A stretch of DNA of 32,000 nucleotides from Candidatus Saccharimonadota bacterium (GCA_003516025.1 CP023991.1:330001-362000); one strand, 5' to 3'. Positions 4,223 to 22,765 are shown, counted from the stretch's first letter. The notes: generated by a model from the letters alone, not told the origin. Made by a program: numbers and translations.

Positions 4223-4551
4223 TGGTAATGAGGCAAGACGCCAGTACCGGCGAAATGGTAGAAGCGCCCGATGACGGCAGCGAGCAGAAAGCGGCTGATC
4301 CCAAAAAACCAATTATGTCGGTTAAAGTGTACGCCCCGTTCCAAGTGTATTTCGAAGGCGATGCCTACAGCGTGACGGCCGCAAACGAGACTGGGCCGTT
4401 CGATATTTTACCGCGCCACCATAACTTTATTTGTATGCTGGTTCCGTGTAACCTAGTCATTAAGACGCCGTACGAAGAGAAAGTTGTCAAGATTTCGCGT
4501 GCCCTGATGCACGTCAAAGCCGAGCGTGTCGTTGTGTTCGTCGACGTTTAG
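4222..4551 (+). CDS. atpC: F-type ATP synthase subunit epsilon (beta-sandwich domain only)
   Basis: Follows atpD with a TAATG overlap. Core MSVKVYAPFQVYFEGDAYSVTAANETGPFDILPRHHNFICMLVPCNLVIK matches the epsilon N-terminal domain pattern. An alternative internal start at ATG 4315 would remove a 31-aa acidic N-extension. Confidence 0.8.
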
Positions 4552-5570
4552 CCAGCGACGAAGTAGGAGAAGCCGAACACCTGGTTGGCCGGAGCAGGGT
4601 TGGCAGTGCAGACGCTAAAGCCCGTGTTAGTGCGCGTAACGTAGTACTGGGTCTGGCCAGCGGCGAGACCAACTGGGCTGATAATGACGTTAGGCGGGGA
4701 AGCGAAGGCTTGCGCGAAGTTTACCGAGATGAAGCAACCGGCAGTCGGGTTGTTGCCGCTGTTAATATTAACAGTACCAACAGTATCGGAACCGTTTACG
4801 GATGCGGTTCCACCGTTGCCAAGCACACCTGTGTTGATGGATGCCCGCTGCGCCGGAGCGCCGGTGAAAGCAATATGGTTTGGTACTTGCAATACGGCGT
4901 TACCGCTCATAATGAGCCGGGTAACGGTAATCTGCGAAGCGCCCATGGGCCCGCTAAAATTACTGGCACCAGATACGTTAACGGTGCTCAGGGTCGTAGT
5001 GCCTTGCATGATGGCATTCTGGGCTACTTGCAGGCTATTTATTTGCGTGTCAGCCAGGTTGGTCTTGCCAGCGACAGTAAGGGTGGCTGCCTGCAGGTCA
5101 CCACCCAGGCGGATGCGGCCGGCAACATCAAGATCTTTTTGTACCAGGAGCTGGCCGGTAAATACGGCGTTTCCCTGCACGGTCAGTGTCTGGGCGGCAT
5201 TACCGACGGTGGCGTCTGAGTTGGCTAGTTGCTTGAGGGCATCAGTCGTCAGCTGTTGAGTGGCGACTTCAGGAGTATCCGGCGCTTTCTTGCTGTTTAA
5301 GAAGCTGACCGCGCTGGTGGCGGCGACGACTACCATAATGAGAATAAAACCGAGTAGATAGACGTCGACTTTGTGCCAGAAAGCTTTGAGCGGATTAACT
5401 TTTTTTGCGGAGCCTTCGGTGGCGGCAGCTTCAAGTGATCCGGTGGCGTCAACCCCCTCCGCGGTCAGCTCTTCGTTGGTCTTTTCCAGAGCATCAGCGG
5501 GCGCGGTTTGAGTTACTCCGATATTCTCAGGAGTTGCGGACGTGTCTTCGGTTGGTTTTTTGTCTTCCAT
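4548..5570 (-). CDS. hypothetical membrane-anchored surface protein with beta-helix-like imperfect repeats
   Basis: 340 aa. Acidic, disordered ~70-aa N-terminus, one TM helix (VYLLGFILIMVVVAATSAVSFL), then a Gly/Thr/Asn/Val-rich region with repeating short-strand patterns (LTVQGNAVFTGQLLVQKDLDVAGRIRLGGDLQAATLTVAGKTNL...). Overlaps the atpC stop convergently by 4 nt. Confidence 0.75.
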   Translation of the reverse strand: MEDKKPTEDTSATPENIGVTQTAPADALEKTNEELTAEGVDATGSLEAAATEGSAKKVNPLKAFWHKVDVYLLGFILIMVVVAATSAVSFLNSKKAPDTPEVATQQLTTDALKQLANSDATVGNAAQTLTVQGNAVFTGQLLVQKDLDVAGRIRLGGDLQAATLTVAGKTNLADTQINSLQVAQNAIMQGTTTLSTVNVSGASNFSGPMGASQITVTRLIMSGNAVLQVPNHIAFTGAPAQRASINTGVLGNGGTASVNGSDTVGTVNINSGNNPTAGCFISVNFAQAFASPPNVIISPVGLAAGQTQYYVTRTNTGFSVCTANPAPANQVFGFSYFVAG

Positions 5571-5652
5571 CTCAGCTATAGCTTTGCTTATGCTTTATAT
5601 GGGATATCGTACTACATATGCCCGCTATAATCCAGCTCTAGACATAAACGGT

Positions 5653-5691
5653 TTGAAATTTGGGCGGGCATCAAGCATACTAAACATAAGC
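5653..5691 (+). promoter_or_regulatory. putative promoter of gene A plus AAACATAAGC box
   Basis: TTGAAA (5653-5658), 17 nt, CATACT (5676-5681), then AAACATAAGC (5682-5691). The palindrome CATAAGCTTATG (5685-5696) contains the ATG start. Confidence 0.5.
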
Positions 5692-5693
5692 TT

Positions 5694-6443
5694 ATGCAAA
5701 AACAAATGATGAGACGGTTTTTACATAGTGCGGCGCTCTCGGTACTTATATGTGTTGGCGCTGTCGGAATGGCGGCCGCGGATACCGCGAGCTCGTCGAA
5801 TTATATGGTGTCTGAGACGCAATTCGGTTCCGGCTCCGCATTGGAACAGTGTAGTGGCAGTTACTGTGCCCGCTCGGCAACCGGCGATTTAGTGAACGGC
5901 CAGGCCAAAAGCGATAATTACGGTGCCCGTTTCGGGTCGGTGACTACGGCAGACCCCTACCTGGAAGTTTATACTAGCGGTGGTTTATCTGATTTGGGGA
6001 CGCTTGACATCGACCGGACCGCCACCGCCACCGCCCAGATAAGTGTCCGCAACTATATGGGCGGCTACGTTATGCAAATTACCGGCCGGCCGCCGTCGCA
6101 GGGCAGCCACGAATTAAAGGCCATGGATAGTGATCCACAGTGTCCCTGTACATCGCAGATGGGGGCCGAGCAATTCGGCATTAATTTTATTGCCAACACT
6201 GCACCATCGGTCGGCGCTAACCCAACACAGGTGCCATCAAATACTTTCAGTTTTGGCCAGGCGGCGACGGATTATGACACGCCGAATCTATTTAAATATG
6301 TTGAAGGTGACATTGTGGCTCAGAGTAATATCAGTAGTGGACAGACCGATTACACGCTTTCAATGATATTCAATGTCTCCAACGTGACACCGGGTGGCCA
6401 GTACACCGGCTCTTACTCGGCAGTGGTGGTTCCGACGTATTAG
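5694..6443 (+). CDS. secreted protein A, smallest member of the locus paralog family (CscB/WxL-like by architecture; hypothetical)
   Basis: 249 aa. Signal peptide MQKQMMRRFLHSAALSVLICVGAVGMAAA/DT. Shares EQFGINF and the C-terminal TPGGQYTGSYSAVVVPTY-stop with B, C and E. Confidence 0.85.
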   Translation: MQKQMMRRFLHSAALSVLICVGAVGMAAADTASSSNYMVSETQFGSGSALEQCSGSYCARSATGDLVNGQAKSDNYGARFGSVTTADPYLEVYTSGGLSDLGTLDIDRTATATAQISVRNYMGGYVMQITGRPPSQGSHELKAMDSDPQCPCTSQMGAEQFGINFIANTAPSVGANPTQVPSNTFSFGQAATDYDTPNLFKYVEGDIVAQSNISSGQTDYTLSMIFNVSNVTPGGQYTGSYSAVVVPTY

Positions 6444-6462
6444 TTCATTAACTGTTAATGAA
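6444..6462 (+). terminator. weak AT-rich palindrome directly after gene A
   Basis: TTCATTAAC-t-GTTAATGAA begins right after the TAG stop. No U-tract follows, so terminator function is doubtful. Confidence 0.25.
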
Positions 6463-6483
6463 CTACTGCTGTGGATAAGTATC

Positions 6484-6512
6484 TTGTTGACACATAACGC
6501 TTATGCTACAAT
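6484..6512 (+). promoter_or_regulatory. putative extended -10 promoter of gene B
   Basis: TTGTTG (6484-6489; alternatively TTGACA at 6487-6492), then TGcTACAAT (6504-6512). GCTTATG lies in the spacer. Confidence 0.55.
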
Positions 6513-6580
6513 CCGCATTGTACCCACAAAAATATAAACAATAAGTCTCAAACCAATATAGAAAGGAGAATCTTTTCTCT

Positions 6581-8248
6581 ATGTATGTAAATAATATTAA
6601 GGAAGCTGTAACGCGCAGTGGGGCATTCGCGATGGCTGTGAGTATGCTGAGCATTCTGGGTATCAGTGCTTTCCCCTCACTGGTATTCGCTAACGCCCTC
6701 AACCCGCTGACAGAGCGTACATTGCTCATGACGAGCTCTGCTCCTGGCTACAATAATACGGACGGTTCCGGCAATGCGACATATGCACCTCCGGGCAGTG
6801 GTCCGAATGGCCAGAAAGCCGGACATAAGTTCAGTTTTAAAGTGAGTACCGACAGTAGCGGCAGTGGTGCTGCGATTGACGGTTTTTCATTCCAGTACTG
6901 TACTACTGCAGCTGGTAACTGTACCTCTCCTGGAAACGACACTGTTGTTGCACCTGGTGATGATCAAACTCCTGGCACTGCCGATGACCGTGTAGATAAT
7001 GCTGCAAATAAAGAGAGTGACCTCAACGTCAGCTATGCTAACCCCCAGGAAGTAACGGCTATTCCGACATCCAACCCAGATGGGTTGGCACTTGTTGATG
7101 CTGATAACAGCGACGGAAATTTCGCGGTACTGTGGGACAGCAATAATGACGGCGTTGACGAACTAAATGCTGGCTGGGAAATGGACGTACAAAACTACGA
7201 AACTCCTAGTGCGGTTACGGTAAAAAACAACTTCATCCGTCTCCGTAAGGCTACTACCGGTTCTGGCAACAGTGCTGCCCTGAAGCCTGCTCCGGGTGTC
7301 AAGATTACCGTAGTCTTCTATGCTACTGATGATAACTTCATTACGAATCCCGGCTCCGGTAACTTTTTCGTCCGGTTGAATACCTACAAGACAAATGTTT
7401 ACACCTCAATGCTACCGAACTCGAACACGAATATCCTCGACGGTGGTGTAACGGTTGCAAATGTCATGACTGATTCAATCCATATCACCACTAAGGTTCT
7501 GGAAACGATGAGCTTCTCAGTCGGTACTGAAAATCCAGATTACCTTCCAGCTGGCGGCGGACAACATGGTCCTTGTGATCCAATTGAGGACAATGATCAA
7601 ATCCAGCTGGGTAACGCCAATGCAGAATCTTCACTGGAAGTAAACACTGCGTATGACGCTAAATCATACTGGCGCCTGTCATCCAACTCCTCCGCTGGCG
7701 CATCAGTGTATTACTCAGGCAGTACGCTCAGCAACACCGTCGGTGATAAGATTGACCCAGCTGGTTTCTTCGTAGCTGATGGTTCCGGAAAAACTGCCTT
7801 CAACGGCACTAACGTGCTCGACTTCGCCCATGCCGGCGGACCAGGTGCGCTTAGTCATCCAGGAATGGAACAATTCGGATTAGCTTTCGACCCAACTGAA
7901 GATCGCGATAACGATGGCGTCGCTGACCTACCTGATGGTAACGTCGGTGAACAAGGCCCAGGCAATGACCTTAAAGGACTGATTATGAGTGACGCCTACA
8001 ACGGTGGCGCAGGTCGTATCAATAAGGAAGTGGTAGATCCCGATGATTCATCTCAAGATCTCCCTATTACGGCTAAGTTCGCTTTCGATCCTTCAAGCCA
8101 GTCAACACCAGCTCTGATTGCTAGCAACACTACTGATGTTGTTGACTGCTCGACCGGTAAGATGCGCTACATTGGTAACATCGCTGCTGCAACACCAGCC
8201 GGTGTATACACCACTAAGATTAACTACCTCGCTGCTCCTCAGTACTAG
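6581..8248 (+). CDS. secreted protein B, large paralog with two DxDxDG-type acidic loops (CscC/WxL-like by architecture; hypothetical)
   Basis: 555 aa. Signal peptide ending SLVFA/NA. AAAGGAGA SD upstream. Family motifs FQYCTTAAGNCTSP, VLETMSFSVG, EQFGLAF and the C-terminal TPAGVYTTKINYLAAPQY-stop. Confidence 0.9.
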   Translation: MYVNNIKEAVTRSGAFAMAVSMLSILGISAFPSLVFANALNPLTERTLLMTSSAPGYNNTDGSGNATYAPPGSGPNGQKAGHKFSFKVSTDSSGSGAAIDGFSFQYCTTAAGNCTSPGNDTVVAPGDDQTPGTADDRVDNAANKESDLNVSYANPQEVTAIPTSNPDGLALVDADNSDGNFAVLWDSNNDGVDELNAGWEMDVQNYETPSAVTVKNNFIRLRKATTGSGNSAALKPAPGVKITVVFYATDDNFITNPGSGNFFVRLNTYKTNVYTSMLPNSNTNILDGGVTVANVMTDSIHITTKVLETMSFSVGTENPDYLPAGGGQHGPCDPIEDNDQIQLGNANAESSLEVNTAYDAKSYWRLSSNSSAGASVYYSGSTLSNTVGDKIDPAGFFVADGSGKTAFNGTNVLDFAHAGGPGALSHPGMEQFGLAFDPTEDRDNDGVADLPDGNVGEQGPGNDLKGLIMSDAYNGGAGRINKEVVDPDDSSQDLPITAKFAFDPSSQSTPALIASNTTDVVDCSTGKMRYIGNIAAATPAGVYTTKINYLAAPQY

Positions 8249-8289
8249 GATATAATTCCTTACTTTTACGCCACATAGTTTGGCAGGAG

Positions 8290-8318
8290 AAAAAGACCCG
8301 GTTTACCGGGTCTTTTTA
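8290..8318 (+). terminator. intrinsic terminator after gene B
   Basis: AAAA-AGACCCGG-TTTA-CCGGGTCT-TTTTAT: an 8-bp GC-rich stem, a tetraloop and a U-tract. A-tract/U-tract symmetry suggests it may work in both directions. Confidence 0.85.
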
Positions 8319-8323
8319 TGCCT

Positions 8324-8353
8324 TAGACAATTCGATGGTTATTCTTGTACAAT
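8324..8353 (+). promoter_or_regulatory. putative promoter of gene C (leaderless)
   Basis: TAGACA (8324-8329), 18 nt, TACAAT (8348-8353). ATG 8360 begins 7 nt after the -10 box. Confidence 0.55.
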
Positions 8354-8359
8354 ACATCT

Positions 8360-9442
8360 ATGCATAAGCTCAATCATGTGAGGGTGAGGGTATTGCCGCA
8401 CCATGTTTTTTGGGCTGAGATGTTGTTGTCTCTGTTCTTCTCGGTAATCGTTTTTCTACCGAGCGTCGACGCGGCCGATGTCTCACGCTTAAGGCTGCGC
8501 AGTTTGTTCATGTATAACCCCAACCCGGGCGTTGTCACGGACTACAAGGTTTCTTTCACATATTCCACGACTACCACTGTCGGATCGGTTGACATGCTAT
8601 TTTGTACAAGCCCTATCCCGGATGATCCGTGTTACGTCCCTGTGGGGCTGGACTTATCTAATGTAAGTATGGGTGTACAGACGGGTGAAACAGGATACGA
8701 TGTCCAGGTCAAATCACCGAACCACATTGTCCTTAGCCGAGCGACGCCAGCTGTGGTAGACGCGGTAGCATCATCTTATACGCTGCATAATGTTAAAAAC
8801 CCGACGGACGATGTCCGGCCTTTCTCAATTCGTTTGAGTACCCATAGCGATAGCGCGGCGAACAATCCCGTTATTGATCTCGGTTCGGTTGTCGGTGGAC
8901 TCAATAATGGGATTTTTATAGAGACACAGGTGCCGCCGACACTCATGTTCTGTCTTGGCCAGGAGGTTTCCGTCGACTGTAGCGATGTAGACGGTGTAAA
9001 TTACCATGATATGGGAAATCTGGCGGCGGACACTACATTAACGGCTCAGTCACAGATGTCGGTAGGTACCAACGCGACTTCGGGGTTTGCTATTACTGTT
9101 AATGGCACCAGTATGAAAGCGGGCAATAATGTGATAGACGCCGTAGCTGCAATACCAACTACCAGTATTACGGGCAAGAACCAGTTCGGAATCAACTTAG
9201 TAAAAAATACCCAACCGGAAGTTGGCGGCGATCCTGACGGTGATGACTCGGTAGCTGCCGCAGCCGCAAATTACGACCAGCCGAACCGTTACTTTTTCCG
9301 AGATGGGGATGTAGTCGCAAGCTCTCCTCATGTCAGTTTATTGAAGCGATTTACAGTCAGCTATATCGTTAATACCGATCCAAACTTACGTGCCGGTGTC
9401 TATAGCACAACGATTACCTACATTTGCAGTGGCCGATTTTGA
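8360..9442 (+). CDS. secreted protein C, paralog of B and E (hypothetical)
   Basis: ORF track begins at TTG 8345. I prefer ATG 8360 because a TACAAT -10 box (8348-8353) lies 6 nt upstream, which fits a leaderless mRNA. Signal peptide ...FFSVIVFLPSVDA/AD. Motifs DYKVSFTYS, LFCTSPIPDDPCYVP, NQFGINL and the C-terminal RAGVYSTTITYICSGRF-stop. Confidence 0.85.
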   Translation: MHKLNHVRVRVLPHHVFWAEMLLSLFFSVIVFLPSVDAADVSRLRLRSLFMYNPNPGVVTDYKVSFTYSTTTTVGSVDMLFCTSPIPDDPCYVPVGLDLSNVSMGVQTGETGYDVQVKSPNHIVLSRATPAVVDAVASSYTLHNVKNPTDDVRPFSIRLSTHSDSAANNPVIDLGSVVGGLNNGIFIETQVPPTLMFCLGQEVSVDCSDVDGVNYHDMGNLAADTTLTAQSQMSVGTNATSGFAITVNGTSMKAGNNVIDAVAAIPTTSITGKNQFGINLVKNTQPEVGGDPDGDDSVAAAAANYDQPNRYFFRDGDVVASSPHVSLLKRFTVSYIVNTDPNLRAGVYSTTITYICSGRF

Positions 9443-9451
9443 TGCTACAAT
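9423..9451 (+). promoter_or_regulatory. putative extended -10 promoter of gene D, overlapping the 3' end of gene C
   Basis: TTTGCA (9423-9428), 17 nt including TGc, TACAAT (9446-9451). Confidence 0.5.
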
Positions 9452-9488
9452 TATGCTTATACTTAAAAGTAACAGTGAGAGAGATAAA

Positions 9489-10535
9489 ATGAAACGTTTA
9501 TTTACGTACGTCAGCAGTGTTACTCTGCTGCTTGCACTTATTGGCAATGTAGTTCCTGCTTCGGCTCAATCGACAGGCTCATCAGGCCTAAGTATTACGC
9601 CCCGCAAAAACCTCACACTAAAACCAGGCGAGTCGACCACTGATAAACTTACTATCGGTAACTTAAGCAAAAACGCGGATTTGGAAGTTAGCCTAAAAGC
9701 TATCGATTTTACTTTCATGAATGAAACGGGCACGCCAAAGTTATTGCTCGGCGAGAATACACAGCAGACAGCGTGGTCAGTTAGGCCGTTTCTGGAATTC
9801 ACTCAATCTGTTGTCGTGCCGGCTGGACAGTCTCGAACCGTTAATTACACGCTAACTATTCCAAAAAACCAGGGTGCCGGTTCTTACTACAGTGCTATCC
9901 AGTATGGTACGGGCGGTACTAATGGAGGAAATGTTAATTTGAGCGCTTCTGGAGTTACACTTGTATTTGTTTCTGTCCCCGGTGTCGTAAAAGAAGACAT
10001 GACACTTAAAAGGTTTGGTGCCTACCAACTAAACAAGGACAATATTACCGGTAGTTACGTTAAGATAGCCACAAATAAGCCAGAACAAGTCGCATTTACA
10101 TTACAAAATAATGGAAATGTTGCAGAAGCTCCCGTTGGCAGCGTAACTGTTAAATATATGTTCGGCAAGAAACAATGGAATATTGACAACGTCAACGAAA
10201 CGTCATCGCTTGCTCTTATCGGCCAAAGCCGTATTTATTTAAATTGTCTAGAATCTCAAGAACAACAGGTGAATGTTGCTGGTAGTGAAGCCAAAAACAA
10301 GACCTGTAAGTCACCAAAATTATGGCCCGGCCGTTACACGGCAACCCTCGATGCCTTCTACGGGCAAAACGGTAACAACACTCATCAGGTATCAGCTACC
10401 GCCAGTTTCTGGTACTTGCCATGGTGGTTCCTTATTACCATAATCGCTCTACTCACCATCATTTCAACCGCAGTACTGCTCATAGTCTATAAGGCAAAAC
10501 GAGCCGCCAGGGGCAAAAGCGCCCGGCGCCGCTAA
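9489..10535 (+). CDS. cell-surface protein D: signal peptide + two beta-rich halves + C-terminal TM anchor (CscA / DUF916-DUF3324-like by architecture)
   Basis: The track ORF starts at 9390, inside gene C. ATG 9489 gives a proper signal peptide (MKRLFTYVSSVTLLLALIGNVVPASA/QS). C-terminal TM helix WWFLITIIALLTIISTAVLLIVY followed by KAKRAARGKSARRR. Clear paralog of F. Confidence 0.85.
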   Translation: MKRLFTYVSSVTLLLALIGNVVPASAQSTGSSGLSITPRKNLTLKPGESTTDKLTIGNLSKNADLEVSLKAIDFTFMNETGTPKLLLGENTQQTAWSVRPFLEFTQSVVVPAGQSRTVNYTLTIPKNQGAGSYYSAIQYGTGGTNGGNVNLSASGVTLVFVSVPGVVKEDMTLKRFGAYQLNKDNITGSYVKIATNKPEQVAFTLQNNGNVAEAPVGSVTVKYMFGKKQWNIDNVNETSSLALIGQSRIYLNCLESQEQQVNVAGSEAKNKTCKSPKLWPGRYTATLDAFYGQNGNNTHQVSATASFWYLPWWFLITIIALLTIISTAVLLIVYKAKRAARGKSARRR

Positions 10536-10542
10536 CAAAAGT

Positions 10543-10569
10543 AAAAGGGGACTGTAAAAGTCCCCTTTT
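10543..10569 (+). terminator. intrinsic terminator after gene D
   Basis: AAAA-GGGGACT-GTAAA-AGTCCCC-TTTT. Confidence 0.85.
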
Positions 10570-10588
10570 CGCATAAACAGAATAAGGT

Positions 10589-10604
10589 TAGAATAAACAT
10601 AAGC
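10589..10604 (+). promoter_or_regulatory. putative -10 box of gene G plus AAACATAAGC box
   Basis: TAGAAT (10589-10594) followed directly by AAACATAAGC (10595-10604), then TATG with the start at 10606. No convincing -35 box. Confidence 0.45.
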
Positions 10605-10605
10605 T

Positions 10606-11523
10606 ATGAGGTTTGAAAAGCGCATCATTTTGTTACTGCAAGCTAGCATCCTGGCTTGTTCGTGCTTAGTGGCTTTCGCCGTACCGCAGGCTAGCGCTGC
10701 CATAAACAAAATACCCGAACCTGATCCCAAACCTAATTCATTCGGCCTTGAGGCCACTAAAACGCAGCCGGCGCCAACTCAGGGCGCGACTATATCGGTG
10801 CCCGGCAGCGGCGCGTCGTTTAGTACCTCGCCTGTAACGGTTAGCGGTATCTGTCCGAAGGGCTTGCTGGTACAGGTATACAACAACGGCGTGCTGGCGG
10901 GTTCCATAGACTGCGCCAACGGCAGCTTTAGTATCCAAGTAACACTCTATAATGGCACAAACGAATTAACGGCGACCGTTTTCGATGATCTTGACCAGGC
11001 GGGGCCGGAGTCAAACAAGGTGAGCGTTAGCTATAATAACGCGTCCATCACGGCATTTGGCCAACTTATTACGCTTACCAGCGCCTTTGGCCGTCGGGCT
11101 GCCGATCCGGGAACGCAGCTTGTCTGGCCACTGGTACTTTCGGGTGGCACTGGGCCGTACGCCTTTAGTATTGACTGGGGAGATGGCACTTCGCCTGAGC
11201 TTAAAAGCCAGGCACTGTCCGGGGAGGTTCGAATATCGCATACCTATAAGCAAGCTGGTGTGTACCATGTGATCGTTAAAGTAACCGATGCCAACGGTGT
11301 CAGCGCTTTCTTACAGTTAACGGCCGTAGCGAATGGTAAGGTAACTGCCGCCGAGACGACGGCAGCTAACACCAAAACCGTGGTCGTGACGAAAATGCTG
11401 TGGATTCCGGTGATCGTGGCAGCTATCATGCTGGTACCTGCGTTCTGGCTGGGCCGGCGTAGCGAACTGAAGAGCCTGCATAAGCGGCTGCAACATGATT
11501 TAGATACCTATAAAGATTTGTAA
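10606..11523 (+). CDS. membrane-anchored Ig-like/PKD-domain surface protein G
   Basis: 305 aa. Signal peptide ...VAFAVPQASA/AI. PKD-type block YAFSIDWGDGTSPE...ISHTYKQAGVYHVIVKVTDANG. C-terminal TM helix MLWIPVIVAAIMLVPAFWLG and a short charged tail. Confidence 0.85.
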   Translation: MRFEKRIILLLQASILACSCLVAFAVPQASAAINKIPEPDPKPNSFGLEATKTQPAPTQGATISVPGSGASFSTSPVTVSGICPKGLLVQVYNNGVLAGSIDCANGSFSIQVTLYNGTNELTATVFDDLDQAGPESNKVSVSYNNASITAFGQLITLTSAFGRRAADPGTQLVWPLVLSGGTGPYAFSIDWGDGTSPELKSQALSGEVRISHTYKQAGVYHVIVKVTDANGVSAFLQLTAVANGKVTAAETTAANTKTVVVTKMLWIPVIVAAIMLVPAFWLGRRSELKSLHKRLQHDLDTYKDL

Positions 11524-11530
11524 AAAAGTA

Positions 11531-11560
11531 TTGCGCATCATAACATAAGCATGATAAAAT
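11531..11560 (+). promoter_or_regulatory. putative extended -10 promoter of gene E
   Basis: TTGCGC (11531-11536), 18 nt, TGaTAAAAT (11552-11560). TAACATAAGC (11541-11550) lies in the spacer. An AT-rich leader of about 55 nt carrying an SD follows. Confidence 0.45.
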
Positions 11561-11621
11561 CTACTCGTTAACCATAAAAACCAAAAATATTAAAATAAAA
11601 TTAAAAAGAGGGATTAAACAT

Positions 11622-12785
11622 ATGAAATCCATAGGGATCTTCAACCGCCGCTCCAGCTCTCTCGTAGCCGCAACGGCCATGCTCCTGTCGGTCGTGGCGC
11701 CGAGTCTGGTATTTTCCAGCGCGTCAGCCGACCAGCTGACCGGCCGGAAGATAGAATTGAGCAGTTCCGCTGCCGGCGCGACCGACGTAGACTATAAAGT
11801 AACATTCACCGCTACTGAATCAGCGGCAGGATATGTCATTGATTTTTGTAGCAACAGCCCGTTGCTTGGTATGAGTTGTGTGCCACCCACCGGCATGTCC
11901 ACGGCTAGCCCTACTGCTTCAGGCGCTACAGTTGTTGACGGTCCTGCTGCACCTACAACAAACACCAGCTTAGAAATTACACAAGCTATTACGGCCGGTC
12001 CTGTGACTACAGAAGTAAGCGGCATAACCAATCCAACGACAGCCGGTCCATTGTACGCTCGTATCTATACCTATGAGGACATGGCTAATGCGGCCGTGTC
12101 ATCCAATCCAGGAACTACTGAAGACAATGGCGCAGTCGCACTGTCAATAACTAACAAAATTGGCGTATCCGCTGCCGTCCTGGAAACTATGACTTTCTGC
12201 GTATCTAAGACAGATACATCTTCGTCAGGCCATGAGAATTGCCTCGATCTAGGCGATGCCGAAGATTTGCCGAATATTCAGCTCGGTGAAGAGAGTGGCG
12301 GCGTCAAGGCGCTGCAAACTGGTATCGTAAGTAAGGGTACTATATGGACTCAAATTTCTACTAACGCCGTAGCAGGCGCCGTAGTAAGCATGAAGATTAA
12401 CAATCAATGCGGTGGCTTGAAATTGGCGGGCGTTAGTTCTCCTTGTAGCATTGCTCCTGCAATCAGCGGAAGTATTGTAGACAACGGCCCGGCTAAATTC
12501 GGTGTCAAAACCGGCACTGCGGTGGCTTCAGCGGACATCACTACCGCCCAGGGTACATACCAGCCTGCGACAGGCAGCGGTTATGGTGACAGTTCGTACT
12601 TCATGGGATTTGTTGACGGTGACGACGGTGTCACTAGCACGTATGGCGACCCTGTTCTTGACACCAACGGTGCTCCAATCAACAACATGAACATGCCGCT
12701 GGAATTTGCTGCTACGATTACTAACCAGACTCCAGCTGGCCTGTACTCGGCAGACCTCAATATGATTGCATCGGGTACATTCTAG
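11622..12785 (+). CDS. secreted protein E, paralog of B and C (hypothetical)
   Basis: 387 aa. AGAGGGA SD about 10 nt upstream. Signal peptide ...PSLVFSSASA/DQ. Motifs VDYKVTFTAT, DFCSNSPLLGMSCVPP, VLETMTFCVS, AKFGVKT and the C-terminal TPAGLYSADLNMIASGTF-stop. Confidence 0.9.
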   Translation: MKSIGIFNRRSSSLVAATAMLLSVVAPSLVFSSASADQLTGRKIELSSSAAGATDVDYKVTFTATESAAGYVIDFCSNSPLLGMSCVPPTGMSTASPTASGATVVDGPAAPTTNTSLEITQAITAGPVTTEVSGITNPTTAGPLYARIYTYEDMANAAVSSNPGTTEDNGAVALSITNKIGVSAAVLETMTFCVSKTDTSSSGHENCLDLGDAEDLPNIQLGEESGGVKALQTGIVSKGTIWTQISTNAVAGAVVSMKINNQCGGLKLAGVSSPCSIAPAISGSIVDNGPAKFGVKTGTAVASADITTAQGTYQPATGSGYGDSSYFMGFVDGDDGVTSTYGDPVLDTNGAPINNMNMPLEFAATITNQTPAGLYSADLNMIASGTF

Positions 12786-12816
12786 AAAAATCCGCCAGCC
12801 CACGGAACTCATTTAC

Positions 12817-12826
12817 AAACATAAGC
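12817..12826 (+). repeat. third exact copy of the AAACATAAGC box, upstream of gene F
   Basis: ATTTAC-AAACATAAGC-GTG. The same 10-mer occurs at 5682-5691 and 10595-10604, each time right after a -10-like hexamer and right before a start codon. Confidence 0.5.
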
Positions 12827-12874
12827 GTGTCTGTTAAGGTAAGTACAAGTAACCACTATGGGAGTTAAAAACAA

Positions 12875-13924
12875 GTGATAAAACAAACACTACGGGTTGC
12901 ATTGTTCGCGACAGTGCTTTGTGGGCTTGTAGCTACGTCCAGTGTGTCTCCTGTCTTTGCCGCGACGACCGCTCCTGCCAAAGCCAAGACGACGCCGCCT
13001 AATACCAGCACTAACACGCTTAAAATATCCCCTATCCGCACCGAAGTAACGATCATTGCAGGACAGACGAGTACCGTTAAGACAATTGTTACGAATATTA
13101 CCGGCAGTCCGATTGTGGTTGAACCGATTGAAAACGACTTCGTGGCCGGTGACGAAAATGGTACGCCAGCCCTCATCCTTGACCAGAACAGCTACGCCCC
13201 GACCCACAGCCTGAAGCGTTTTATGGTACCGCTTAAGAATGTGACGATTAATCCGGGCGAAGCCAAAGAAATCCCTGTAACTATTACCGTTCCAAAGAAT
13301 GCGCAGGCTGGTGGTTACTTCGGCGCCGTGCGCTTTGCTCCCGCCAACACCAGCGGTAGCCAGCAAGTCAACCTCAGCCCGAGCGTTGCCTCCCTGATTC
13401 TTCTGACCGTTCCCGGTCCGACCACCGAACAACTGAACCTGACGAACTTCGACATCCAACAAGATGGCAGCTCCGGCTCCAATTTCCGCACGCCGGAAAA
13501 TCTTCAGGCTTTCATCCGCTTTGAAAATAAGGGTAATGTACAACAGGCACCCGTCGGCCAGATCAACGTTAAAAAGGGCAGTAAAGTCGTGTACACCGCC
13601 GACTTTAACCAGACCGATCCGAAAGCCAACGTCCTGCCCGACAGCGCCCGCCGCTGGACCGTTCCGCTGAAAAAGCTTGGGAAATTTGGTAAATATACCG
13701 TCAGCGCCACCTTTACCTACGGCAGCAAAAACGAAAGCATTGATGTCACTAAGACCGTTTGGATTGTGCCAACGACCTACATCTACGCTGGCATCATTGC
13801 AATTGTTGTCCTGGTAGCCATCGTTGGTGGCTTCATCCTCTTCCTTAAGGGCTACAAGCGCCGCCTGTTGGGTGGCTCATCCCGCTCCGGCCGCGGTGGC
13901 CGTAATAATTACCGCCGCCGCTAG
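12875..13924 (+). CDS. cell-surface protein F: paralog of D (CscA / DUF916-DUF3324-like by architecture)
   Basis: 349 aa. GTG start with GGAG SD 10 nt upstream. Signal peptide ...SSVSPVFA/AT. C-terminal TM helix YAGIIAIVVLVAIVGGFILFL followed by an Arg/Gly-rich tail (RRLLGGSSRSGRGGRNNYRRR). Multiple conserved blocks shared with D. Confidence 0.9.
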   Translation: MIKQTLRVALFATVLCGLVATSSVSPVFAATTAPAKAKTTPPNTSTNTLKISPIRTEVTIIAGQTSTVKTIVTNITGSPIVVEPIENDFVAGDENGTPALILDQNSYAPTHSLKRFMVPLKNVTINPGEAKEIPVTITVPKNAQAGGYFGAVRFAPANTSGSQQVNLSPSVASLILLTVPGPTTEQLNLTNFDIQQDGSSGSNFRTPENLQAFIRFENKGNVQQAPVGQINVKKGSKVVYTADFNQTDPKANVLPDSARRWTVPLKKLGKFGKYTVSATFTYGSKNESIDVTKTVWIVPTTYIYAGIIAIVVLVAIVGGFILFLKGYKRRLLGGSSRSGRGGRNNYRRR

Positions 13925-18901: not shown

Positions 18902-19125
18902 TAGCGCTTATGCAATTTACGCTTATGGTTGTAAAAAATAAACATCAGCTTGCCTTCTCAGAGTAGTGGGTGTTTACTGGATGAATAGATTAATTAATAT
19001 AACATCGTAGAAGGGCTGGCACAATTTTATAAAAGTACAAGACTTTATTTTCAATTGCTATTTGCAATAATAAAATAATAATGGTGTAATAATTAACTTA
19101 TTGAGGTATTTACGGGGTTTTTCTT

Positions 19126-19587: not shown

Positions 19588-19626
19588 CGATACATAATTT
19601 ATCCGTGCCGTAGCCGGCTGGCAGTG

Positions 19627-19635
19627 TGCTAAAAT
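19627..19635 (+). promoter_or_regulatory. extended -10 element upstream of the ftsA-like gene
   Basis: TGcTAAAAT lies 8 nt upstream of ATG 19644. The 12-bp palindrome AAGCATATGCTT (19638-19649) spans that ATG. Confidence 0.45.
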
Positions 19636-19643
19636 TAAAGCAT

Positions 19644-21005
19644 ATGCTTGATTTGCAAAAGTTAAAGGGTGTGGGCGCGTCTGTTGCTAAAAAGGCTGGC
19701 CAGGCCGCGAAACAAGCGACTGACTCCGCTAAAAATGTTAAAGATAAGCGAGCCACCGGCGCGGCTGCGCGCAACGACCAGTACATCGTGGCGCTTGATA
19801 TCGGTACGGAATACGTCAAGGCGCTCATCGGCCGGGTAAACAGCGACAGCGACGAGATCGACATTATAGGTGTCGGCCGCCAGAAACAGCGCTTGAGCGA
19901 TATGCAGGCTGGGGCTATTTCAGATATCCCGAGCGTTGTTCAAAACTGTGACCAGGCACTGGCTAAAGCCGAAGAGCAGGCAGGCGTCAGTGCCCGCATG
20001 GCCGTCGTCGGTATTGCCGGCGAACTGGTCAAGGGAACGACTACCCGTATTAAGGTCACACGTCCCCAGCCGACCAAGGCACTCGATACAGCTGAAATGG
20101 AAAAAATCATCCGTTTAGTACAGGAACGAGCCGGCGTGAAAGCCCGCCAGGAATTACTGGTTGAACTGGGCGGCAAAGACGTCGAAGTCCGCCTGGTGAA
20201 CAGTGCCCTGGTGAGTATTGATATCGACGGTTATCCCGTAACCAACCCGATTGGCTTCCAGGGTAAAGACGTTGTAGTACAAATGTATACCGCCTTCGCG
20301 CCGCTGATTCATATTGGCGCTCTGGAGCGTACTGCCCAGGAGCTGGATCTTGACCTGCTGGCTGTAGCTGCCGAACCGTTCGCCGTCGCCCGATCGGTTA
20401 TTGGTAATACCAGTAACTCCGCCTTTAGCGCCGTACTGATGGATGTCGGGGGTGGTACGACTGATATCGCCGTTATCAATGACGGCGGCGTACAAGGTAC
20501 CAAAATGTTTGGCATCGGCGGCCGAGCCTACACCCGTGGTATCGAGCGTGACCTGGGCGTTGACTATGACCTCGCCGAAAAACTGAAACTGGGGCTCAGC
20601 AATCAAACCGTGCCGGCCCGCCAGGCTGTTGCCGTAACAAAAAACCTGCAAAAGACACTTGATGTCTGGACCAGTGGTGTTGAGTTGGCGCTGGGAGAAT
20701 TTCCCGGCCTCGACCACTTGCCGCACCGCATTCTGCTCTGCGGCGGCGGTTCCAGTTTAGACATGCTAATGGACAACCTACAGCGCACCAACTGGTATAC
20801 CGACCTGCCGTTCGCTCGAAAACCTGTCGTGCAGCACATTCAGCCGGGCCAGGTTGTTGGCATTCACGACAAGACCGGCCAAGTCGCTGATCACACTTTT
20901 ATTACCGCTATGGGACTGCTGCGCGTCGGACTTGATACCTTAAGCTATTCCGGCACATCGAGTGGTACCATTAAGGAAAAACTGGATAAGATATTACAAA
21001 CCTAA
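19644..21005 (+). CDS. ftsA: actin-fold cell-division protein FtsA-like
   Basis: YIVALDIGTEYVKALIG, VLMDVGGGTTDIAVINDGG and RILLCGGGSSL phosphate/adenosine motifs. C-terminal IKEKLDKILQT could be an amphipathic membrane-targeting helix. The track start is GTG 19626. ATG 19644 is favoured by the extended -10 TGCTAAAAT at 19627-19635. Confidence 0.8.
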   Translation: MLDLQKLKGVGASVAKKAGQAAKQATDSAKNVKDKRATGAAARNDQYIVALDIGTEYVKALIGRVNSDSDEIDIIGVGRQKQRLSDMQAGAISDIPSVVQNCDQALAKAEEQAGVSARMAVVGIAGELVKGTTTRIKVTRPQPTKALDTAEMEKIIRLVQERAGVKARQELLVELGGKDVEVRLVNSALVSIDIDGYPVTNPIGFQGKDVVVQMYTAFAPLIHIGALERTAQELDLDLLAVAAEPFAVARSVIGNTSNSAFSAVLMDVGGGTTDIAVINDGGVQGTKMFGIGGRAYTRGIERDLGVDYDLAEKLKLGLSNQTVPARQAVAVTKNLQKTLDVWTSGVELALGEFPGLDHLPHRILLCGGGSSLDMLMDNLQRTNWYTDLPFARKPVVQHIQPGQVVGIHDKTGQVADHTFITAMGLLRVGLDTLSYSGTSSGTIKEKLDKILQT

Positions 21006-21022
21006 GGAAGTAAGCAAACGCT

Positions 21023-22765
21023 ATGGCAACGAACCAAAAAGACACCGTTTATATCGACATTGATGATGAAATAACCAGCATCATTGATAAAGTACGCGCT
21101 GCCGACGCCCGCATTGTAGCCCTGGTGCTGCCAAAACGGGCGGCTGTGCTGCAAAGCATCGTCAACATGAAGCTACTCAAGAAAACGGCAGAACAGGCCA
21201 AAAAACATGTTGTGCTGATTACTTCCGAGTCAGGCCTGTTGCCGCTGGCAGGTGCCGTCGGGCTGCATGTGGCTTCCAGTTTGCAGTCGAAGCCGGCTAT
21301 TCCTGTGGCGGGTGGCGTAGTTGCCGCCGAAGTGATTGACGGCAGTGGTGATTTTGACGCGGCTTCCGTAGCTGATAGGCCGGTAGGCCAATTGGCCGGC
21401 CCGGCCGCCTCCGCCTATGACGCTAATGATCTCGATACGATTACCCTTGATGACGAACCGGCTGCGGCAGATGCCGCAAAAGCTGGTACCGTTACCGGAC
21501 TTGCCGCTGGCGCCGCTCCTGTTTCTGCTGCTGGAGCGTCTACTAAAGCCGATAAGGCCGCTAAAGGTAAAAAAGACAGCAAACTTAAAATCCCCGATTT
21601 TAACAAGTTCCGTCTATGGTTGATTGCCGGCGGGGCCCTGCTGATAGCCCTGATTGTATTCGGTTATTTTGCCCTGGTCGTTATGCCAAAAGCAACCGTT
21701 ACTATCGCTACCGACAGCAGTGATATCCCGACGAATGCTGATATTACGCTCGATCCGTCGGCTGACGAACTTGATCTGGAAGACCGTGTGCTGCCTGCTA
21801 AAATTGAGACTAAGCAGCAGGCCAGCACCCAGCAAGCTACCGCCACCGGCCAAAAGAATAACGGTACCAAAGCAACTGGTGAAGTTCGGATGACGGCTGG
21901 TAGCTGTAGTGCTGATATACCCGAAGACGTCCCGGCTGGTACTGGAGTTAGCAGTAATGGGATGACTTTTATTACCGGCAATAACACCACCTTTGTTCCG
22001 ACATCTTCCAATGGTAAATGTGTCTTTACGGCTAGTCGTGATACGAATATAACGGCTCAAAAAGCTGGCGCCACATATAATATTGCTGCAACAACTTTTA
22101 GTGTCGCCGGGCGGAGCGAAGTTAAGGCGAACTCCGAGGATCCTACAAGCGGGGGGACCGACAACATCGTTAAAGTAGTCGCCCAAAGCGACATTGATAA
22201 TGCTAAGCAGAAACTGACGGCCAGCACCAGCTCATCGGTAAAGAGCGAATTGCAGTCCAAGCTTACGGACGACGGGTATAAAGCTGTAGCCAGCAGCCTT
22301 AAGGCGGGAGACGCGGCCGTAACATCGAGCGTAAACGTTGGCGACCAGGCGGACGTGGTAACAGTAACTTCTACGACGACGTATACCATGTACGGTATCA
22401 AAACCAGCGACCTCAAGCGACTGATTCTCGACAATGTTAAAGACAAGATCGACAGTAGTAAGCAGCAAATCCTCAATGACGGTACCGATAAAGCCGCCTT
22501 TACCATCAATTCACCGGCCAGCAGTGGTGAACTCCAGGTACGCTTGGCGGCAACCTCGTTGGCTGGTCCTGACCTCAAGACTGACACTCTAAAATCTCAA
22601 ATAGCCGGTAAGAAAACCAATGATGTCCGCACCGCAGTCACCTCGACGCCTGGCGTAACTGGTGTTACGGTTAAGTACAGCCCATTCTGGGTCTCGAAAG
22701 TACCGAAAAATCAGGATAAAATTACTATCGTAATCGAAAAGGCGTCAGCCAGTAAGAATAATTAG
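21023..22765 (+). CDS. hypothetical bitopic membrane protein (cytoplasmic alpha/beta-like N-domain, Ala/Pro-rich linker, TM helix, Ser/Thr-rich ectodomain)
   Basis: 580 aa. AAGGAAG SD. TM helix LWLIAGGALLIALIVFGYFALVV at about residue 198. Starts 17 nt after the ftsA-like stop, so probably co-transcribed. No family recognised. Confidence 0.8.
   Translation: MATNQKDTVYIDIDDEITSIIDKVRAADARIVALVLPKRAAVLQSIVNMKLLKKTAEQAKKHVVLITSESGLLPLAGAVGLHVASSLQSKPAIPVAGGVVAAEVIDGSGDFDAASVADRPVGQLAGPAASAYDANDLDTITLDDEPAAADAAKAGTVTGLAAGAAPVSAAGASTKADKAAKGKKDSKLKIPDFNKFRLWLIAGGALLIALIVFGYFALVVMPKATVTIATDSSDIPTNADITLDPSADELDLEDRVLPAKIETKQQASTQQATATGQKNNGTKATGEVRMTAGSCSADIPEDVPAGTGVSSNGMTFITGNNTTFVPTSSNGKCVFTASRDTNITAQKAGATYNIAATTFSVAGRSEVKANSEDPTSGGTDNIVKVVAQSDIDNAKQKLTASTSSSVKSELQSKLTDDGYKAVASSLKAGDAAVTSSVNVGDQADVVTVTSTTTYTMYGIKTSDLKRLILDNVKDKIDSSKQQILNDGTDKAAFTINSPASSGELQVRLAATSLAGPDLKTDTLKSQIAGKKTNDVRTAVTSTPGVTGVTVKYSPFWVSKVPKNQDKITIVIEKASASKNN

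Follow-up and report, generated by a model that had tools for sequence, protein, structure and literature searches.

A probable pam pilus operon in Candidatus Saccharimonadota and the likely donor strand of its pilins

A 32,000-nucleotide stretch of DNA from a Candidatus Saccharimonadota bacterium (GCA_003516025.1 CP023991.1:330001-362000; the whole stretch is called the window here) encodes, between positions 5694 and 12785, four similar and apparently exported proteins, A, B, C and E. The locus raises the question of whether these proteins polymerise into a fibre and, if they do, which of their common strands joins one subunit to the next. An initial annotation, made from the sequence alone, had proposed that they are donor-strand-exchange fibre subunits with conserved strands at their extreme N- and C-termini, comparable to chaperone-usher (Csu) pilins or TasA-like fibres. 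We found that window positions 5694-13924 very probably represent an ortholog of the pam operon known from Candidatus Mycosynbacter amalyticus (a 2026 preprint by Troman et al., bioRxiv 10.64898/2026.03.03.709456), which encodes a pilus system reported to date only in bacteria of the candidate phyla radiation (CPR, Patescibacteria). Pam pili are thought to be the long thin filaments that parasitic Saccharibacteria use to reach actinobacterial hosts and capture them, and they represent a rare donor-strand-exchange assembly without an outer membrane or an usher. Public resources already contain a description and models of the Pam system, and the window adds nothing categorically new to it; reading of the sequence alone had recovered the right class of mechanism.

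Identity of the operon and relatedness of its pilins

Seven genes make up the cluster, the last of which lies beyond the initially annotated stretch (window positions; aa, amino acids; Cys, cysteine; AF2, AlphaFold2):

5694-6443, plus strand: gene A, 249 aa, PamT ortholog, the tip subunit (NF058579 CPR_pilus_PamT, an equivalog model, 293.4 bits)
6581-8248, plus strand: gene B, 555 aa, PamA-type major pilin (position beside PamT, size, Cys count, hhalign to E and C)
8345-9442, plus strand: gene C, about 360-365 aa with an uncertain start codon, PamE-type pilin (NF058581, 151.5 bits; hhalign to E)
9489-10535, plus strand: gene D, 348 aa, PamD-type membrane-anchored chaperone (AF2 model, Foldseek, PF06030)
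10606-11523, plus strand: PamR ortholog, 305 aa (NF058578, an equivalog model, 386 bits; Pfam PKD match)
11622-12785, plus strand: gene E, 387 aa with six Cys, PamB-type major pilin (mass, Cys pairs, hhalign, AF2 model)
12875-13924, plus strand: gene F, 349 aa, PamC-type chaperone, a paralog of D with a C-terminal transmembrane segment

The names of several of these proteins came from models of NCBIfam 20.0, namely NF058578 for PamR (cut-off 300), NF058579 for PamT (cut-off 240) and NF058581 for the C-terminal domain of the 'Pam pilus system pilin subunit' (cut-off 55 bits), the last of which matched A with 150 bits in addition to C. The RefSeq accession order in M. amalyticus is PamC, PamB, PamR, PamD, PamE, PamA, PamT (Troman et al., 2026), and the order in the window, PamT-PamA-PamE-PamD-PamR-PamB-PamC, is its exact reverse and hence matches it; gene C, for example, lies between the PamA and PamD genes, as it does there. 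PamA has been reported to have a mass of 55.3 kDa and two Cys pairs, and PamB a mass of 38.7 kDa and three Cys pairs (Troman et al., 2026). The product of gene B, with four Cys and large insertions within its N-terminal domain, has a mass of 57.7 kDa as the precursor and 53.7 kDa in mature form, and the E precursor has a mass of 38.9 kDa; the number of Cys pairs is the same as in PamA and PamB, respectively. From the reversed but identical accession order, the NCBIfam names and the sizes and Cys counts we therefore concluded that A is PamT, B PamA-type, C PamE-type, D PamD-type, E PamB-type and F PamC-type, and that the 305-aa gene is PamR. The surroundings of the operon are also in line with published work, in which pam neighbourhoods contain ATP synthase genes and a tail-fibre-like gene (Troman et al., 2026): in the window, genes for the alpha, gamma, beta and epsilon subunits of ATP synthase lie upstream, and a tail-fibre-like gene adjoins A. 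MnmA, AlaRS and other housekeeping genes lie downstream. For gene C, the products starting at TTG-8345 and at ATG-8360 were both absent from the protein collection searched.

Several points weigh against this identification. With NF058581, B and E reached just 48.2 and 29.5 bits, both below the cut-off. The CorB and MFS genes reported beside the M. amalyticus operon are missing on the PamC side of the window. Because the window is not M. amalyticus-like on that side, orthology to the solved proteins is drawn from profiles and synteny and not from a direct comparison of sequences. Strand exchange in the window's own proteins would likewise be read from cryo-electron microscopy (cryo-EM) of orthologs and not from a computed complex. 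Sequence searches of the PDB with B, E, a PamD profile and a PamT/PamE profile returned nothing real, in a copy of the database that evidently lacked the Pam structures, and the source of the Pam description is a preprint.

B and E are orthologs of the two experimentally solved major pilins, yet the cut-off of NF058581 would leave both of them unrecognised. We also considered that the window might be the M. amalyticus locus itself. This was rejected, at least as regards the described neighbourhood of that locus, in view of the missing CorB/MFS neighbours and of residue 356 of B, which is not Ser under any plausible start codon. Matches of E to SAKe designer proteins in the PDB sequence search were dismissed as repeat artefacts.

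The pilins are related to one another well beyond a common fold. BLASTP comparisons among the proteins of the window paired A with C (2.7e-17), B with E (2.5e-6) and C with E (3.1e-6). We then compared family alignments, profile against profile, which were built from a comparative set of 79 related genome loci (L002-L080), 63 of which hold both operon ends. With hhalign, C and E matched over their full length (1.2e-39), A and C over the C-terminal domain (2.7e-33), and B and E with 8.6e-23; the weaker pairs were B-C (5e-17, again across the whole length), A-B (2.1e-6) and A-E (1.4e-6). As negative controls, the pilins were compared with their non-pilin neighbours (PamR, D and a 340-aa membrane-anchored protein encoded next to A), and these comparisons gave probabilities of 1-5%. 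A, B, C and E are thus true paralogs, with a similarity far above chance. The initial annotation had offered its fibre model as a structural hypothesis and not as demonstrated homology; profile comparison makes the homology demonstrable. The motifs on which it was built were real, as all 20 of the 20 quoted strings were found in place and the C-terminal strings of A, B, C and E all end exactly at the stop codon. The common blocks described there (the post-signal strand, KV(S/T)F, the Cys loop, VLETM(S/T)F, QFG and the C-terminal strand) are in register in the family alignments, which contain one further common block, NPxxxGP(L/F)YxR(I/L)xTY, and within each family (about 80 orthologs apiece) conservation is highest in these blocks. 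By appearance, the N-termini of the pilins resemble Sec signal peptides with AxA-type sites at their end; cleavage sites were predicted in the initial annotation only. A, B, C and E had no Pfam match.

Donor strand, chaperones and alternative readings

If the four paralogs are pilins, the next question is how they would be joined. The work on the M. amalyticus orthologs combined cryo-EM, mass spectrometry and AlphaFold models of complexes, and the PamA and PamB filaments, which are shed, were solved by cryo-EM at 2.8 and 3.6 Å (Troman et al., 2026). These orthologs form filaments by donor-strand exchange, and the donor is the linker that connects the N- and C-terminal domains; it fills the neighbouring subunit's open C-terminal domain (Troman et al., 2026). 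The corresponding elements of the window's proteins are:

7475-7516, plus strand: linker block of B, SIHITTKVLETMSF, residues 299-312, a presumed donated strand that aligns with the linkers of C and E
8909-8950, plus strand: linker block of C, GIFIETQVPPTLMF, residues 189-202, which aligns with the linkers of B and E and is conserved in 71 sequences
12156-12197, plus strand: linker block of E, KIGVSAAVLETMTF, residues 179-192, a presumed donated strand in a stretch of low predicted local distance difference test (pLDDT) score between confident domains
12729-12782, plus strand: C-terminal strand of E, TPAGLYSADLNMIASGTF, strand 379-385 of the C-terminal domain in the AF2 model
6387-6440 (A), 8192-8245 (B) and 9386-9439 (C), plus strand: strands equivalent to the C-terminal strand of E

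We modelled E with AF2 from an alignment of 33 sequences (mean pLDDT 81). The model consists of a signal helix (residues 9-39), an N-terminal beta-sandwich (strands 42-177) and a second beta-rich domain (190-385). Residues 179-186 (KIGVSAAV), just ahead of VLETMTF, have a pLDDT below 50 and form the sole internal stretch of low confidence by the domain boundary. The linker block is strongly conserved: it is nearly invariant among 42 PamA-family sequences in B, and V182, V186, E188 and F192 are invariant among 33 orthologs of E, a protein with 614 homologs, of which the close ones are 45-51% identical. Gene A is built differently, with a signal peptide, a Cys-containing N-terminal segment of about 60 aa and then the C-terminal pilin domain only; it lacks both an N-terminal domain and the first half (IxIxxxV) of the linker block, and it keeps only a weak counterpart of the second half. 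PamR, an RbmA-like protein with a PKD/FnIII-type domain and a C-terminal transmembrane helix, has been proposed to be the pilus terminator and membrane anchor (Troman et al., 2026). The conserved N-terminal strand of the PamR ortholog, given as SFGLEATK or GSYGLEATK (LEAT-type), resembles the VLET core of the linker and not the N-proximal block.

Because of the cryo-EM of orthologs, the AF2 model of E, the half-block missing from PamT and the strand of PamR, the mid-protein VLETM(S/T)F block, together with the residues that precede it, is most likely the donor strand in these proteins. The aromatic G-x-Y strand at the C-terminus most likely belongs to the accepting domain. In E this end of the protein is highly conserved, with T370, A372, G373, Y375, A383 and F387 invariant in 33 orthologs. 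Chaperone-usher pilins have a conserved C-terminal strand, and the Pam C-terminus echoes it; by analogy with those pilins and with the ortholog structures, the C-terminal strand of E would line the acceptor groove. Of the initial proposal, the mechanism class stood, being that seen in the cryo-EM of the orthologs, and the choice of donor did not, since in those orthologs the donated strand is the linker and not the N-proximal one.

The fold of the two chaperones gives a further view of the system. D and F are paralogs (BLASTP 3.4e-29, hhalign 1.8e-45), and AF2 folded D (pLDDT 76.5) into a pair of beta-sandwiches, with a transmembrane helix at residues 312-340. A Foldseek search of the PDB with this model returned WxLIP of Enterococcus faecium first (9i1y, 1.3e-10), also as 9i25, where it is bound to a long WxL protein, followed by the chaperones CfaA, EcpB, FimC, FaeE, CsuC, Caf1M and DraB of chaperone-usher systems (6e-9 to 4e-6). 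PF06030 (DUF916, the WxLIP peptidoglycan-binding domain) matched 31 of 34 PamD-family members at E <= 0.01, with a best value of 1.2e-7; the scores of D and F themselves, 24.2 and 23.4 bits, are below the gathering cut-off of 27.3. Neither D nor F had a DUF3324 match in the second chaperone domain, and neither had a PapD match in Pfam. That both Pam chaperones belong, as distant relatives, to the DUF916/WxLIP family known from Firmicute WxL clusters is reasonably supported.

Alternative readings differ from an interdomain-linker pilus in the strand that is donated, or in whether the proteins polymerise at all. In classical N-terminal-extension exchange, in the style of Pap/Fim, Csu and TasA, the next subunit would have its fold completed by the strand that follows the signal peptide. 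The post-signal block does align among B, C and E, and in 33 PamB-type orthologs T40, R42, S43, L46 and S47 vary little or not at all. In the AF2 model of E, however, the N-proximal strand (residues 42-46) is placed with confidence inside the N-terminal sandwich (pLDDT block 89), whereas the linker is the disordered element; the cryo-EM of the orthologs has the linker donated and not the N-terminus, and PamR, the predicted plug of the last pilin, carries a linker-like strand. We therefore consider N-terminal donation very unlikely.

A non-filamentous surface complex of the WxL type, in which the C-terminal domain would be a module that binds the wall or a partner, held by the WxLIP-like D and F and not polymerised, is just as improbable. 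It would fit the best PDB match of D (WxLIP in 9i1y and 9i25, E = 1e-10), the PF06030 matches in the PamD family and the parallel layout of the clusters, including a membrane-anchored protein with two Ig-like domains. Against it stand the long filaments formed by the orthologs in cryo-EM and cryo-electron tomography, whose two major pilins rank 2nd and 9th in abundance among the proteins of the cell (Troman et al., 2026), and the C-terminal domain itself: the WxL domain PF13731 matched none of 116 PamT/PamE-family members at E <= 10, and the PDB sequence search with the PamT/PamE profile did not find a WxL chain. That the proteins are unrelated secreted adhesins or S-layer-type proteins with a merely Ig-like fold, or sortase-linked pilins as in Gram-positive bacteria, we regard as the least probable of all, with hardly any likelihood. 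A Foldseek search of the PDB with the model of E did return two-domain Ig-like adhesins, with the chaperone-usher tip subunit CfaE on top (8.9e-7), PapG among the matches listed (TM-scores of about 0.2), and the MSCRAMM adhesins SdrG, ClfA and FnBPA and antigen I/II C-terminal domains among the top matches. TM-scores to these last proteins are just about 0.15-0.2, however, and the specific family models and the synteny point to the Pam system; with regard to sortase, the proteins end at an aromatic residue without an LPXTG signal, and the operon has no sortase gene.

Returning to the preferred reading, that of a Pam pilus joined through its interdomain linkers, we propose the following mechanism. 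All seven products of the operon would be exported via Sec. The four paralogs would have an incomplete Ig-like C-terminal domain in common; PamT (A) would consist of that domain alone and cap the distal tip, and the E, B and C pilins would add an N-terminal beta-sandwich. The interdomain strand of each pilin (the IxIxxxVLETMxF block) would be donated to the preceding subunit and enter its open C-terminal domain, giving a linear, non-coiled filament. Ahead of exchange, the subunits would be held by two membrane-anchored two-domain chaperones, PamD (D) and PamC (F). At the base, the N-terminal strand of PamR would insert into the last pilin and so tie the fibre to the membrane, and no usher would be needed. 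For the window's proteins, we infer from their orthologs the same assembly, along with the precise extent of the donor strand, the subunit order and the role in host capture.

A feature of the tip subunit deserves mention here. The PamT-specific N-terminal segment (residues 30-90 of A, window 5781-5960) carries a pair of similar, conserved motifs, SSSxNYxVxExQFGxGS and SSxxYSAxFGSNT, which flank a conserved Cys pair, C53/C58; this segment might cap or partly fill the tip subunit.

Distribution, neighbouring genes and transcription signals

The architecture of the window, with a tail-fibre-like gene followed by A B C D R E F, was found in 45 of the 63 loci holding both operon ends. The other 18 have a shorter architecture made up of PamT, at least one PamB-type pilin, PamE, one PamC-type chaperone and PamR. 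PamT was present in all 63 loci, and in 45 the operon ends with F. PamA-type and PamD-type genes co-occurred perfectly: both were present in 45 loci and both absent from 18, and no locus contained one of the two only. This perfect co-occurrence suggests that PamD is a dedicated chaperone of PamA. The related loci all come from Saccharimonadia or Patescibacteria assemblies, save a few that are evidently mis-binned or loosely named, and this taxonomic spread fits the CPR-restricted distribution reported by Troman et al. (2026). Searched against 1.84 billion representatives, the PamT profile hit 776 clusters at E <= 0.001 (best 150 of 776 listed). The pam proteins of the window are only 45-67% identical to those of the nearest species in the genome collection.

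Complete pam operons were also present on contigs with unexpected labels, DATMTU010000018.1 ('Dongiaceae bacterium', L019) and JAEYSX010000003.1 ('Candidatus Parcubacteria bacterium', L078). The 'Dongiaceae' contig is almost certainly a mis-binned contig of Saccharimonadia.

Features of the window outside the pam genes themselves include a conserved neighbour and two hairpins:

4548-5570, minus strand: 340-aa membrane-anchored protein, divergently transcribed from A, a conserved neighbour with weak bactofilin and H-type lectin matches only
8295-8317, plus strand: intrinsic terminator hairpin after B, GACCCGG-TTTA-CCGGGTC followed by TTTTT, as read from the sequence
10543-10569, no strand assigned: symmetric GC-rich hairpin with flanking A and T runs just past the stop codon of D, bidirectional-terminator-like

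Besides its N-terminal transmembrane segment, the 340-aa protein has a repetitive body rich in beta structure, and it adjoins PamT in 58 of the 63 complete loci. Proteins of its kind have been named 'tail fibre-like protein' and are central in the neighbourhood network (Troman et al., 2026).

Promoter-like sites follow the hairpins after the PamA-type and PamD-type genes, one of them at 8324-8353 after the terminator of B. With its internal terminators and promoter-like sites, the pam cluster is probably divided into several transcription units, which would permit different expression levels of the major pilins.

The heptamer CATAAGC/GCTTATG recurs in the intergenic DNA of the operon, at window positions 5586, 5685-5696, 6499, 8363, 10598, 11544 and 12820, and further copies lie at 18906, 18921 and 26898. 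At 5685-5696 it forms a perfect 12-bp palindrome, CATAAGCTTATG, which overlaps the ATG of gene A. There are 14 copies in the window against 4.65 expected, and none of 100 shuffles reached 14. Across 70 related loci its density is 1.32 per kb in pam intergenic DNA and 0.13 per kb in open reading frames (ORFs), a tenfold difference, and a 10-mer, AAACATAAGC, is found just downstream of the PamB-type gene in at least 10 species. From its distribution, the motif may be an operator or a lineage-specific promoter element.

The co-occurrence of PamA and PamD, the WxLIP link of the Pam chaperones and the palindromic CATAAGC motif of the pam intergenic regions are all absent from the main text of the preprint (Troman et al., 2026), and the co-occurrence, the chaperone family and the palindrome could sharpen the published Pam model. 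Elsewhere in the window, and unrelated to pam, positions 19626-22765 encode a 459-aa actin-fold ATPase resembling FtsA/PilM and, after it, a single-pass membrane protein of 580 aa without a family match. Rfam and tRNA scans of the window gave no RNA genes.

Comparison with known systems

The closest counterpart of the locus is the Pam system of M. amalyticus, with which it has in common the seven genes and their order, the equivalog matches of PamT and PamR, two-domain pilins, sizes and Cys pairs, two membrane-anchored chaperones and neighbouring genes. It differs in belonging to another genome, in lacking the CorB/MFS neighbourhood and in PamA- and PamB-type proteins that score below the NCBIfam domain cut-off.

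The comparison with chaperone-usher pili (Pap/Fim, CFA/I, Csu, Caf1), as made in the initial annotation, holds at the level of the fold, with the CfaE match of the pilin and the PapD-like fold of the chaperone, and fails at the level of sequence, where we found no similarity. Both kinds of pili would rely on donor-strand complementation of an incomplete Ig-like domain, a conserved C-terminal strand and a two-domain PapD-like chaperone. Pam, however, has neither an usher nor an outer membrane, and Pfam and NCBIfam scans of the main ORFs between 495 and 29845 showed no usher-like protein. Its chaperones are membrane-anchored, its filament is linear and not coiled, and its pilins have two domains, with an internal linker as the donor in place of an N-terminal extension.

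The likeness to TasA, which had been suggested alongside, found no support: Peptidase_M73/TasA matches were absent from A, B, C and E, and Pfam gave no TasA-type match in the 116 PamT/PamE-family members. Like Pam pili, TasA/camelysin fibres and archaeal thread and bundling fibres consist of secreted beta-sandwich subunits that use donor-strand complementation without an outer membrane. Unlike Pam pili, they have an N-terminal donor strand and single-domain subunits, and they lack dedicated chaperones of the Pam type.

The WxL/Csc clusters of Firmicutes (PDB 9i1y, 9i25) offer a different kind of parallel. These clusters encode a small protein consisting of the WxL domain only, larger proteins that end in a WxL domain, and a DUF916-DUF3324-transmembrane protein, and an AlphaFold prediction has a strand of WxLIP inserted into the WxL domain. 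In pam, D and F resemble WxLIP in architecture, and a small protein with the C-terminal domain only is likewise accompanied by larger ones that end in it. Pam differs in having no match to PF13731 or DUF3324 and no LPxTG protein, and WxL proteins are described as peptidoglycan-bound complexes, unlike the filaments of Pam. It is conceivable, if doubtful, that the Pam pilus and the WxL/Csc clusters are divergent forms of one ancient chaperone-assisted strand-complementation system of single-membrane bacteria, in which PamC and PamD would be WxLIP members and the pairing of small and large C-terminal-domain proteins would be homologous; for the pilin/WxL-domain half of this idea, the result appears negative as far as sequence can tell. 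Were the common origin true, WxL proteins might also be held, or even polymerised, by donor-strand exchange. Membership of the Pam chaperones in the WxLIP family would link the Pam pilus with the WxL clusters that act in virulence in enterococci, listeriae and lactobacilli and are poorly understood.

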